A stretch of DNA of 42,893 bases from an uncultured Pseudomonadales bacterium (GTDB lineage Bacteria; Pseudomonadota; Gammaproteobacteria; Pseudomonadales; Azotimanducaceae). A model generated the notes under the pieces. It did not search any database. It was not told the DNA's origin and saw only the letters and a list, made by a program, of their open reading frames with translations. The position numbers were made by a program, and so were the translations under genes. This document shows, one piece after another, positions 10,277 through 17,388 of the stretch; within the stretch, counting starts at the first letter, position 1; the number at the start of each line of letters is the position of its first letter. Location: positions 1-42,893 of the forward strand of contig CAYGNA010000001.1 in the NCBI GenBank assembly GCA_964351065.1, written 5' to 3'.

Positions 10277-11602
10277 GTGGGGGCTTTAGTCTGGGAAAAA
10301 TGTCTGGATAGTTTGGAAGGCGAACTGACGTCCAGACAGTTCAATACGCTGATTCGGCCCCTACAGGCAGAAGCGACTGAGAACGAAATAAGATTGCTGG
10401 CGCCGAATAAGTATATTCGTGATCAGGTTTCAGATCAGTTGCTGCAAAGAATTATCGAACTGGCCCAGCAGAATGGCTCCGGGTCGGTTTCACTGCAGAT
10501 TGGTACAACCCGTCAGCGACCGCGTCGCAGTGATGAAAAGACATCGGTACCCGACTTTGGGAATCGAGACAGTTTTTATCCATTGCTCGATCTCAACAAG
10601 GAATTCACCTTTGATACCTTCGTAGAAGGCAGGTCAAACGAACTGGCGCGGGCGGCGGCTTTTCAGGTTGCCGAGAATATGGGCGCAACCTACAAGTGTC
10701 TGCTGCTTTACGGTGGGGTGGGATTGGGCAAGACTCACCTGATGCATGCTGTTGGTAATGCAATTGTCGAAAAGCATCCTGGTATTCGGGTCGCTTACAT
10801 GTACTCGCAGCGGTTTATGGAAGATATGGTTCGTGCTATCGAGCGAGGGGCCATGTCAGAGTTTACGCAGTACTATCGGTCTGTTGACCTTCTGCTGATG
10901 GATGATATTCAGTTTCTGGCCAAGGGTATGAAGTCCCAGGAAGAGTTCTTCCATGTTTTCAATAGGTTACAGGAAGATGGGAGCCAGATAGTGCTGACAT
11001 CGGATCGGTATCCAAAAGAGATAGAGGGGCTGGAAGAGCGCCTCAAGAGCCGATTTGTCTGGGGCATGACAGCGCCAATGGAGCCACCAGAGTTGGAGAC
11101 GCGGGTGGCGATCCTGATGAAAAAGGCACAAATGGAGCAAGTTAACCTGGCTCATGATGTAGCTTTCTTTATTGCTGAACGAATCAGGTCGAACGTTCGT
11201 GAACTGGAAGGGGCATTAAAACGCGTCAAGGCAAATGCACTTTTTACTGGTCGCGAGATTACGATCGATCAGGTAAAGGACGCGCTAAAAGATCTGATCG
11301 CTATTTCGGACCGACAGGTAGGGATCGAGAATATCCAGCGTACCGTGGCAGATTATTACAATATTCGTGTTGCAGACATGCATTCGAAGAAGCGTTCCAG
11401 GTCGGTAGCGAGGCCCAGGCAGATGGCAATGGCCCTGGCAAAAGAGCTCACCAGCCGCAGTCTGCCAGAAATAGGCGATTCATTTGGTGGTCGTGATCAC
11501 ACGACGGTGCTGCATGCCTGCCGCAAGATTGAAGAGCTAAAGGAAAGCATGCGGGACATCCGGGAAGATTATAACAACCTGTTGCGAACGCTCACGGGCT
11601 GA
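10277..11602 (+). CDS. dnaA: Chromosomal replication initiator DnaA
   Basis: 441 aa with a GTG start after a GGAGG RBS. Walker [11 protein letters not shown] and the C-terminal DNA-binding block ([11 protein letters not shown]). Confidence 0.96.
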
Positions 11603-11627
11603 CACCTATGGCTATGGATCTGGCCAG

Positions 11628-12731
11628 ATGCGGTTAACAGTAAAACGGGAATCGCTTCTTGTGCCGCTGCAATTAGCGGCCGGGCTTGTAGGGCGCCGTC
11701 ACACGGTGCCGGTCCTGGGAAATCTGTTGCTTGATGTATCAGAGAACTCGTTGGTAATTACCGGCTCAGACAATGAGATAGAAATCAGCATCGCTACCCG
11801 GGATTTCTCCGCAGATGGTACTGATGCCACAACAGTACCAGCCCGTAAATTACTGGATCTCTGGCGAAATATGCCAGTGGGAGCAGAGGTAGAGCTCGAC
11901 TTTACTCAAGGGCATCTGGGGGTCAGCTTTGGCCGCTTTAAGTCCAGTCTCGCAACCATTCCCGCCTATGAGTTTCCTCTCGTTACGCCGTTATCTGCCG
12001 GTACACTTGTTTCCTTGCCTGCTGAGTCTCTGGGGTTACTACTGGATCGCTGTCGGTTTGCGATGGCGCAACAGGATGTCAGGTATTTTCTAAACGGCAT
12101 GCTCTTTGAGGTTATGGATAGCCAGCTTCGGGTCGTGGCTACAAATGGTCAACGTTTGGCCAGTACTTTTATTCCCGCTGAAGTATCGGTATCGGAGCCG
12201 AGGCAGTTTATAATTCCATCCAAGGGAGTAGCAGAGTTGGCGCGGGTATTTGCCAATGCAGAAGGGGATGTGACGCTTCATTTCTCCGAAAACCATCTGC
12301 GTGCCAAGGTGGGCGACGTTACCCTGACAACCAGTCTCATTGATGGCAAGTATCCCGATTACAGAAGAGCAATACCCACCACCGGCGTTGTAGATCTGCA
12401 GGGTAACAGACGAGAGCTTCGGGACGCGCTGGTGAGGACAGCAATTCTGTCAAATGAGATCTATCACCAGGTGGTCCTGGTATTGCGGCCAGGTGAATTG
12501 GTTTTCCGTGCGAGTAATCCCCTCCAGGAAGAGGCGGAAGAAGTGGTTGTTGTGGCGTACGAGGGTGAGGAGATGGAATTGGCTTTTAACCTTCGATATC
12601 TCCTTGATGTAATGGATGTGATGCATGGTGAAAAGATTCGACTTCAGGCTTCTGGCACCGCCGCGCCAGCGCTGTTGACGGATCCAGCTGACAACAGGTC
12701 ACTATTCGTTATCAGCCCAATGGTCTTATAG
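11628..12731 (+). CDS. Divergent DNA polymerase III beta sliding-clamp paralogue
   Basis: 367 aa, collinear over its full length with the neighbouring dnaN (roughly 45-50% identity by eye). It shares FAMAQQDVRYFLNGML exactly. It differs at pocket-region motifs (ATNGQRLA instead of ATDGHRLA; C-terminus SPMVL instead of MPMKL). Confidence 0.85.
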   Translation: MRLTVKRESLLVPLQLAAGLVGRRHTVPVLGNLLLDVSENSLVITGSDNEIEISIATRDFSADGTDATTVPARKLLDLWRNMPVGAEVELDFTQGHLGVSFGRFKSSLATIPAYEFPLVTPLSAGTLVSLPAESLGLLLDRCRFAMAQQDVRYFLNGMLFEVMDSQLRVVATNGQRLASTFIPAEVSVSEPRQFIIPSKGVAELARVFANAEGDVTLHFSENHLRAKVGDVTLTTSLIDGKYPDYRRAIPTTGVVDLQGNRRELRDALVRTAILSNEIYHQVVLVLRPGELVFRASNPLQEEAEEVVVVAYEGEEMELAFNLRYLLDVMDVMHGEKIRLQASGTAAPALLTDPADNRSLFVISPMVL

Positions 12732-12780
12732 CTTGCTATTACAGGATGTGAACACTTACTAACAAGGTTTGGTACCAAAA

Positions 12781-13877
12781 ATGAAATTGAAGCTTGATCG
12801 AGAAGCGTTGCTCCGTCCGCTCCAGCAGGTAGCAGGCGTCGTGGAGAGGCGACAGACGTTGCCCGTTCTTTCCAACGTTCTGCTGCAGGTAACAGCCGAA
12901 GGATTGTCGGTTACCGGCACCGATCTCGAAGTAGAGCTTATTGGGCGAGTAGTACTGGAGGCAGCCGAGCCTGGCGATGTGACAGTACCGGCTAGAAAGC
13001 TTCTGGATATTGTACGGGAATTACCCGACAAGGCAGAGGTTGAACTTGAATTTACAGATCAGCGATTGACGATCAAGTCGGGCCGGTTTCGCTCCGCGCT
13101 CTCAACGTTGCCCGCTGATGACTTTCCAACGGTAGATCGTTCTGCGACCGAAGTAACAACCAGCCTGAATGCAAAGGCGCTCAAGCGCCTTATAGACCGA
13201 ACCAGTTTTGCAATGGCGCAACAGGACGTCCGGTATTTCCTGAACGGTATGTTGCTTGAATTGGGTGGCGGCCATGTGAGAACAGTCGCAACGGACGGCC
13301 ACCGACTGGCAATGTCGAGCCTTGCCCTGGAAGGTGGAGCAGAAGAGGTGAGGCAGGTTATTGTACCTCGCAAGGGAGTTCTTGAACTGCAACGGTTGCT
13401 GAATGAACTCGATGGTGATGTAGAGGTAACCATTGGTTCCAATCACCTGTGTGCAAGTACCAGCGATTTTACGCTTACCACCAAATTGGTGGACGGTCGG
13501 TTCCCGGACTACGAACGTGTAGTTCCCAGAAACGGCGATAAAGTAGTGTTGGCGGATAAACAGGAGTTCAGGCAGGCACTTAGCAGGACGGCTATTCTGT
13601 CGAATGAGAAGTTTAGAGGGATTCGGGTGAATCTGTCATCAGGACAACTTCAATTGACAGCAAATAACCCTGAACAGGAAGAAGCTGAAGAAATCGTTTC
13701 GGTCGACTACGATGGTGGTGAGTTGGAGGTTGGTTTTAATGTTAGCTATATCCAGGATGTCCTGGGTGTTGTCGATGGTGATAAGGTTCGCATCACGTTG
13801 CACGACGGGAACAGTAGTGCGCTAATGGAAGAACCAGGCGACGACAATTCCGTGTTTGTTGTTATGCCAATGAAGCT

Positions 13878-13881
<4 letters not shown>
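12781..13881 (+). CDS. dnaN: DNA polymerase III subunit beta (orthologous dnaN)
   Basis: Very close to the E. coli and Pseudomonas beta subunit as I recall them (VVERRQTLPVLSNVLL, ATDGHRLA, AILSNEKFRG, NNPEQEEAEE, VVMPMKL). ATGA overlap with recF. ATG 12781 is preferred over the longest-ORF TTG at 12769. Confidence 0.95.

Positions 13882-17388
<3,507 letters not shown>

Follow-up and report, generated by a model that had tools for sequence, protein, structure and literature searches.

A second sliding-clamp gene between dnaA and dnaN

What does a bacterium do with a second β sliding clamp that is encoded directly in front of its first one? This question is raised by contig CAYGNA010000001.1 (GenBank assembly GCA_964351065.1) of an uncultured Pseudomonadales bacterium, of which we analysed a stretch of 42,893 nucleotides, here called the window. 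An initial annotation of this DNA had placed an extra full-length clamp gene of 367 aa at positions 11628–12731 and dnaN at 12781–13881, and both open reading frames (ORFs) were found at those coordinates. We call the upstream gene dnaN' and its product DnaN'. We consider it probable that dnaN' encodes a functional, specialised second clamp with an altered client preference, which probably acts as a homodimer. The pair comprises the following features:

11628–12731, forward strand: dnaN', 367 aa, divergent β-clamp paralogue 5' of dnaN (ORF, Pfam, TIGR00663, AlphaFold2 (AF2) model and tree)
12732–12780, forward strand: spacer of 49 nt separating dnaN' from dnaN, where sites resembling promoters or terminators do not exceed chance
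12781–13881, forward strand: dnaN, canonical β clamp, 366 aa from the ATG at 12781, orthologue of the single-copy dnaN of relatives ('dn' clade)

The three Pfam clamp domains (PF00712, PF02767 and PF02768) span both dnaN' and dnaN end to end, and both score above the cut-off of 137.65 bits of TIGR00663, the NCBIfam DnaN equivalog, with 260.1 bits for dnaN' and 349 bits for dnaN. A full-length BLASTP alignment of the two proteins, interrupted by a single gap, gave 47% identity and 65% positives (E 7e-116), in agreement with the 45–50% identity first estimated by eye. All motifs quoted in the initial annotation are present: ATNGQRLA and SPMVL in DnaN', ATDGHRLA and MPMKL (within VVMPMKL) in DnaN, and QDVRYFLNGML in both. 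No clamp gene other than these two was found in the whole assembly (4.85 Mb, 803 contigs), and GC content is continuous across the pair, without a break. An assembly repeat or artefact was ruled out, because the copies are only 47% identical and the same tandem pair stands in three closed genomes. The window sequence was also found in biofilm-metagenome runs. Automated annotation labels both genes alike as 'DNA polymerase III subunit beta', which masks the difference between them.

The peptide-binding pocket of DnaN' is remodelled

Differences between the paralogues were located by a column scan without preselected sites, in which a column was counted as fixed-different when at least 90% of the canonical clamps held one residue and at least 80% of the upstream clade held another. 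The set comprised 39 canonical clamps and 27 upstream copies, and positions are given here in Escherichia coli numbering. Six columns were returned (L49, L155, D173, H175, V247 and M362), and five of these fall within the peptide-binding pocket or next to it: L155F, D173N, H175Q, V247A and M362S. All 27 upstream copies had N173 and 25/27 had Q175, where the 39 canonical clamps without exception had D and H; position 247 was A in every one of the 27 upstream copies and V in 39/39 canonical clamps; and position 362 was S or T in 27/27 of the former and M in 39/39 of the latter. The upstream clade had further changed S346 to A or P, R/K365 to M, I or V, and the interface residue E298 to L, Q or M. 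The pocket changes of the window copy lie in three segments:

12135–12161, forward strand: pocket hairpin VATNGQRLA of dnaN', with D173N and H175Q
12369–12371, forward strand: Ala248 codon of dnaN' (E. coli V247), floor of subsite 1
12705–12728, forward strand: C-terminal strand FVISPMVL of dnaN', with Ser for the gate residue M362 at 12714–12716 and Val for R/K365 at 12723–12725

As a reference for the canonical pocket we used subsite 1 (L155, T172, L177, P242, V247, V360 and M362), the gate (M362/S346) and subsite 2 (H175, R152, N320 and Y323). Every pocket residue of the window dnaN is canonical. The window DnaN' departs from this pattern by D173N, H175Q, V247A, S346P, M362S and R365V (its own residues N173, Q175, A248, P347, S363 and V366), leaves L155 unchanged and retains T172, G174, L177, P242, V360, R152, R176, N320, Y323, P363 and M364. 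The proposal of the initial annotation that the altered residues line the partner-binding cleft was thus borne out: on the alignment with E. coli β, the changes D173N, H175Q, M362S and at R365 fall in or next to the pocket and are fixed in the clade.

Met362 is a conserved gate between subsites 1 and 2; replacing this methionine by leucine reduces the affinity of ligands, including griselimycin; and His175 contacts peptides of the δ subunit, MutL and Pol III (PMC11621423). DnaN' is a clamp by homology and fold, and it is not a clamp with a canonical pocket. Since the changes are fixed while the other pocket residues stay, the pocket of DnaN' appears to be rebuilt and not destroyed; it is predicted to have lost the gate, to have a deeper floor, usually refilled by F155, and to carry two charges fewer.

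The remaining fixed-different column, L49 (window positions 11772–11774), is the only one off the pocket. A conserved leucine is replaced there by Q or N in the upstream clade, and the residue sits at the tip of a domain-I β hairpin; the change may point to another surface for partner contact, such as one used by the clamp loader.

One tandem duplication and vertical descent

A maximum-likelihood tree (LG+C20, rooted on E. coli) was built from 66 clamps, including the 27 upstream copies. All upstream copies formed one clade (support 100/99). Its sister (100/94) held the 27 downstream copies together with the single genes of genomes G003, G004 and G007, and the joint clade of upstream and downstream copies (99/94) excluded the single-copy members of the family and the order-level outgroups. 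The same internal groupings recurred in the upstream and downstream subtrees. The single upstream clade and the congruent subtrees therefore indicate one ancient tandem duplication inside the family, followed by vertical descent. Recent insertion or horizontal acquisition was ruled out by the congruence of the subtrees and by the position of the duplication node inside the family, and a separate duplication in each genus was ruled out by the 100/99 support of the upstream clade and its common N173/Q175/A247/S362 signature.

The tree, together with the tandem pair in closed genomes, upheld two claims of the initial annotation, that the upstream gene is an old paralogue and not an assembly repeat, and that the downstream gene, which groups with the single-copy genes of G003 and G004 and has a canonical pocket, is the orthologue. 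It corrected a third, that the gene had been inserted between dnaA and dnaN in this genome: dnaN' arose by a deep tandem duplication that is spread over about 79 genomes and 12 genera.

The nearest genome to the window is G002, a closed metagenome-assembled genome (MAG; CP170502.1), which has been reported as GTDB genus HKST-UBA223 in the order Pseudomonadales (PMC11890096); another paper assigned HKST-UBA223 to the family HTCC2089 (PMC13149616). In a scan of the family, a clamp was found in 365 of 400 genomes, and about 79 species-level genomes had two matches, concentrated in 12 genera. Two-copy genomes made up 3/5 of genus g1, 7/7 of g11, 11/11 of g56, 21/27 of g58, 15/16 of g59 and 6/8 of g18; ten more occurred in g2, two in g44 and one each in g3, g15, g41 and g48. 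Wherever the loci of two-copy genomes were inspected (28/28), the genes were in tandem with the divergent copy upstream, and in genera that otherwise have a single copy, extra matches came from fragments, from frameshifts or from distant genes not in tandem. A second clamp was essentially absent from 401 high-quality genomes of about 55 other families of the order, the two exceptions being one fragment and one MAG with 4% contamination. The N173/Q175/A247/S362 signature was present in 109 of the best 120 matches from a collection of 5.8 billion proteins.

The novelty of the finding had been made to depend on the paralogue not proving both widespread in the lineage and already characterised. 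Widespread it is, but searches of the literature yielded no account of a tandem dnaN paralogue from Gammaproteobacteria, and dnaN' of this clade appears undescribed.

In the closed genomes the pair lies in the order yidC-rnpA / dnaA-dnaN'-dnaN-recF-gyrB / gmhB-glyS. The corresponding neighbours in the window are:

10277–11602, forward strand: dnaA, 441 aa (ORF; Pfam Bac_DnaA, Bac_DnaA_C and DnaA_N), at the head of the cluster, 25 nt before dnaN'
13878–14984, forward strand: recF, with an ATGA overlap with dnaN
14971–17388, forward strand: gyrB, start inferred at the ATG giving MSDDRTY..., in an order shared with the closed relatives

The ATGA coupling of dnaN to recF had been claimed earlier, and the overlap was verified.

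In G003 and G004, dnaA and dnaN are separated by about 120 nt in which nothing of dnaN' is left, a clean secondary loss; dnaN' was probably also lost in G022, G289 and G336. In G007 the upstream copy is present, split by a contig end.

S104F/F106S, F267L and A270T are common to both paralogues and differ from the outgroups, and for this reason they are placed before the duplication. Both paralogues carry the S104F and F106S swap on the interface strand, as do the genomes that became single-copy secondarily, and other members of the family do not; this compensated interface change is older than the duplication.

dnaN' is intact, constrained and probably transcribed

The upstream copies of the 28 inspected genomes, which cover the 12 genera, had no internal stops. 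Where dS was unsaturated, the ratio of nonsynonymous to synonymous substitution rates (dN/dS) was 0.04–0.09 for dnaN' and 0.01–0.03 for dnaN. The dnaN' subtree was 2.3 times longer than that of dnaN, a rate figure that rests on subtree lengths and not on root-to-tip distances. By these measures, dnaN' evolves faster than dnaN yet is under clear purifying selection. Between the window and G002, whose dnaN' lies at L004:1501–2601, identity was 98% for DnaA, 91% for DnaN and 75% for DnaN'. The initial annotation would have been weakened by disabling changes on careful alignment; in the alignment the DNA-contact and dimer-core residues are kept, and the frame is free of stops.

The AF2 model of the window DnaN' had a mean predicted local distance difference test (pLDDT) score of 90.4 and a predicted template-modelling (pTM) score of 0.86. 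Foldseek matched it to E. coli and Pseudomonas aeruginosa clamps (6AMS, 6FVL and others) with template-modelling (TM) scores of 0.95–0.96 and root-mean-square deviations of 1.6–1.8 Å. DnaN' is thus predicted to adopt the half-ring fold of three topologically identical domains.

Transcription was assessed in the closed relative G330, whose locus was matched at 98–100% identity by short contigs from two probable RNA runs. These contigs, from a G330-like organism, extend over dnaA and its junction with dnaN', the 5' part of dnaN' and some of dnaN. They are a weak indication that dnaN' is transcribed with dnaA; dnaN' is probably co-transcribed with dnaA and dnaN. A clear GGGAG precedes dnaN' in G330. 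The window dnaN itself lacks a strong Shine-Dalgarno sequence, having AAGG 13 nt before its ATG (within 12732–12780).

Several upstream copies show peculiarities of their own. The lineage of the window and G002 underwent an extra burst of change in dnaN' (stem 1.17 substitutions per site; dN/dS now 0.088), with private replacements at conserved sites (G66D, R96H, L49N and S346P) and with L155 retained; the dnaN159 allele of E. coli carries two mutated positions, of which G66 is one. Two copies of genus g58, L043 (G339) and L042 (G315), are far more divergent than other upstream copies. L043 and L042 end in FLITPLRETA and LFLITPIK where others have V(V/I)SPM.., their residue 362 is T, and the G339 copy has a dN/dS of 0.30 and an odd amino-acid composition. 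The G339 and G315 copies could be specialising for a second time or beginning to decay. In L037 and L038 (G296 and G292) the C-terminus is VVSSMKY, which replaces the otherwise invariant P363.

Ring form of DnaN'

The basic and polar residues through which the central channel contacts DNA are largely kept in the upstream copies: R24 in 24/27 (K in the other three), Q149 in 26/27, R73 in 24/27 and K198 in 27/27, and all four are present in the window DnaN'. The same holds for the dimer interface, where K74 (27/27), L108 (24/27), I272 (22/27), L273 (23/27), E300 (26/27) and E304 (27/27) are retained. From the E. coli structure, we take L108, I272 and L273 to be the hydrophobic core of this interface and the acidic helix E300–E304 to face K74. 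At the level of its sequence, then, DnaN' keeps the head-to-tail dimer interface, with E298 lost.

Which subunits meet across this interface is the question on which the two best explanations part. The initial annotation had suggested, besides a different client specificity, that DnaN' forms a heterodimer with DnaN. Such an asymmetric clamp, likened to a bacterial analogue of heteromeric PCNA, would keep one canonical cleft for the loader and Pol III and have a remodelled cleft that is either kept free for other partners or barred to them. The shared pre-duplication interface strand (S104F/F106S, F267L and A270T) made the two interfaces compatible at the outset, and this part of the suggestion stood; the core interface residues have since been kept in nearly all upstream copies, and the adjacency and probable co-transcription of the two genes favour co-assembly. 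In E. coli, a dimer with a single functional cleft is enough for viability and for the function of Pol III as well as Pol IV and Pol V, as seen with the betaC/beta159 heterodimer (PMC3022782), and pairing with DnaN would remove the difficulty that a remodelled pocket poses for loading. On the other side, dnaN' alone has lost E298 and has relaxed R103 and R105, so that both sides of the interface drift within one protein, and no change in the DnaN interface after the duplication answers those of dnaN'. Moreover, in genus g59 L108F changes together with I272V/L273M, and R105E with E301Q, all within dnaN', while dnaN keeps L108, I272 and L273; against the surfaces of DnaN, which are unchanged, the compensating changes would give clashes or repulsion. 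This covariation, which we weigh lightly, hints at self-pairing and runs against the heterodimer suggestion. We therefore regard the heterodimer as rather unlikely, though it is the strongest of the alternatives, and the quaternary form of DnaN' is probably a homodimer.

Candidate client proteins

The window genome carries single copies of dnaE, dnaQ, holA, hda, dinB, polB, mutS and mutL. Clamp-binding motifs of their products are ordinary: HVDLF in α, SMSLF in δ, QMSLTL in Hda, QLALF in Pol IV, QLGLF in Pol II and QPLLVP in MutL. The genome also encodes a second Pol III α subunit of the DnaE2 type, 31% identical to E. coli DnaE and split over the contig ends of C713, C478 and C216; intact orthologues of about 1050 aa occur in nearly all relatives, and G296 is the only tested two-copy genome that lacks DnaE2. 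On contig C71 the dinB frame is joined to an upstream enoyl-CoA-hydratase-like frame by a short N stretch (XXXX), which is an assembly gap and not a fusion. The polB of the two-copy genome G291 (C39:21735–23711) contains a single in-frame TGA, is missing roughly 120 codons at the start of the match, and is possibly a pseudogene or a sequencing error.

Proposed role of DnaN'

The specialised second clamp can be set out as follows. One dnaN tandem duplication occurred in the ancestor of a subclade of the family (HKST-UBA223 and relatives), with vertical inheritance since. DnaN' has retained what a ring needs: a fold of three domains, the residues that touch DNA and the hydrophobic core of the dimer. 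The remodelling of its pocket took place a single time, directly following the duplication, and has stayed frozen since, with the Met362 gate changed to Ser, subsite 1 deepened (V247A, usually compensated by L155F), H175Q, D173N, S346A/P and the basic residue at 365 lost. A pocket rebuilt identically across species therefore probably serves different or differently ranked partners; DnaN' would rank or select clients unlike DnaN, and DnaN would go on serving the canonical ones. For the client specificity proposed in the initial annotation, the change of the pocket is established, and three candidate clients gave no link. The history of the duplication, the selection, the fold and the place and fixation of the pocket changes are established too; that DnaN' is loaded on DNA, has an altered client specificity and forms a homodimer is inferred.

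Several points weigh against this proposal. None of the three candidate clients, Hda, DnaE2 and Pol II, is linked to dnaN'. A shift of the Hda motif with clamp number was not seen, QLxLx[LFIV] being present throughout 30 genomes (16 two-copy, 2 lost-copy and 12 one-copy); the DnaE2 mutasome was rejected as a dedicated client, as DnaE2 occurs in 28 of 30 genomes whatever the clamp number; and Pol II was rejected because its presence is uncorrelated with clamp number. Since several lineages lost the gene cleanly, some backgrounds at least can do without dnaN'. The pocket is used by the δ wrench too, and its remodelling could therefore make a ring of DnaN' alone harder to load. The case for a homodimer from g59 rests on an event in one lineage and on contact pairs taken from E. 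coli. On the side of expression, the window's own dnaN' was found in no RNA run; the G330 contigs are short and of low depth, come from libraries whose kind was guessed and may reflect DNA carry-over; and the window dnaN' has only a weak Shine-Dalgarno-like GGA, 9 nt before its ATG (within 11603–11627). The production, dimerisation, loading and partner binding of DnaN' are all, in this sense, things that we infer.

Other explanations

Two further explanations are improbable to a similar degree. According to the first, DnaN' is a resistant spare clamp of the GriR kind, whose pocket evades a natural inhibitor (an antibiotic, a toxin of a toxin-antitoxin system or a phage protein), so that replication continues if DnaN is blocked. 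The changes do fall exactly at the site of natural and synthetic clamp inhibitors, where the gate M-to-L change reduces griselimycin affinity, and griR offers the precedent of a dnaN paralogue (PMC11621423). However, the place of the gene is invariably between dnaA and dnaN, its context is never biosynthetic or mobile, and it has descended vertically over 12 genera with a frozen pocket, a history that is not patchy, transferred or like an arms race. A substitute for DnaN would still have to bind α and δ, whose motifs are canonical, and no inhibitor is known in the lineage.

According to the second, DnaN' controls initiation: expressed from the dnaA operon, it would form the Hda-clamp complex that inactivates DnaA-ATP (regulatory inactivation of DnaA, RIDA), or would buffer DnaA, and so free DnaN. 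The position of dnaN' 25 nt downstream of dnaA with no terminator between them, the probable RNA contigs that cross the dnaA-dnaN' junction in G330 and the presence of hda in the window genome agree with such a role, but position says little, as the canonical dnaN is in the dnaA operon in most bacteria. The N-terminal hexapeptide of Hda has the canonical form in all 16 two-copy, 2 lost-copy and 12 one-copy genomes, and the lineages that lost dnaN' thus keep the same motif.

That dnaN' is a redundant duplicate drifting to loss, with no function of its own, can be all but dismissed: its 2.3-fold faster evolution, its clean loss in G003 and G004 and probable loss in G022, G289 and G336, the very divergent copies such as that of G339 (dN/dS 0.30 and an altered C-terminus) and the Bacillus DnaN-2 deletion without visible phenotype (PMC3290774) would fit, but the gene is intact in 28/28 genomes over 12 genera with no stops and a dN/dS of 0.04–0.09, its pocket substitutions are fixed and not random, its ring-forming and DNA-contact residues are conserved and its structural model is confident.

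Significance

The peptide pocket of the β clamp is among the most conserved protein-protein interfaces of bacteria and is also an antibiotic target; it is the hub at which the replicase, the loader, repair polymerases, mismatch repair and Hda compete. A natural paralogue whose pocket was rebuilt once and has stayed under purifying selection in about 80 species would be a ready-made experiment on how pocket chemistry determines client choice, and inhibitors that target the clamp might miss the variant pocket of DnaN'. If DnaN' has a client of its own or pairs with DnaN, its hosts organise polymerase traffic in a way unseen in model bacteria, and the traffic of clamp partners would be partitioned genetically and not only by competition for one pocket. 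Tentatively, and with less confidence than we place in a specialised second clamp as such, one can picture a two-clamp system in a large marine clade of Pseudomonadales, either as an asymmetric DnaN'/DnaN clamp or as a second ring with private clients. The former would be the first natural asymmetric bacterial clamp; the latter would stand beside DnaN as 9-1-1 stands beside PCNA.

Comparison with known clamps

In comparison with canonical DnaN (E. coli 1MMI/2POL and P. aeruginosa 6AMS), DnaN' has the same length, fold, family, DNA-contact and dimer-core residues and operon position. It differs by seven fixed replacements in or near the pocket (L155F, which the window copy lacks, D173N, H175Q, V247A, S346A/P, M362S and R/K365 to M, I or V) and by changes at E298 and L49, and it always coexists with a canonical DnaN. 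Outside bacteria, the PCNA1-2-3 proteins of Sulfolobus and the 9-1-1 complex are clamp paralogues with distinct client sets, arranged in one ring or as a second ring. They are trimers of two-domain subunits, and their likeness to DnaN' is a functional analogy and no link by homology.

Among bacterial systems, DnaN-2 of the Bacillus anthracis/cereus group is about 40% similar to DnaN-1, and its deletion gave no phenotype; according to a review, it is able to join replication and is deficient in some repair functions (PMC3290774). Like DnaN-2, DnaN' is a diverged, dispensable second chromosomal clamp beside the main one. The two are not orthologous: DnaN-2 is an independent duplication in another phylum, whereas the node from which dnaN' descends lies inside a gammaproteobacterial family (99/94). 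Unlike DnaN-2 as described, dnaN' is in tandem with dnaN, next to dnaA, and carries a defined pocket signature fixed in its clade.

The GriR-type paralogues of the griselimycin and mycoplanecin clusters in Actinobacteria are likewise extra dnaN genes with an altered pocket interaction (PMC11621423; see also PMC10817943). Those genes sit in biosynthetic clusters and protect the producer. In contrast, dnaN' has no inhibitor cluster alongside; it is vertically inherited and belongs to the origin region, where it is flanked by yidC/rnpA on one side and recF/gyrB/gmhB/glyS on the other.

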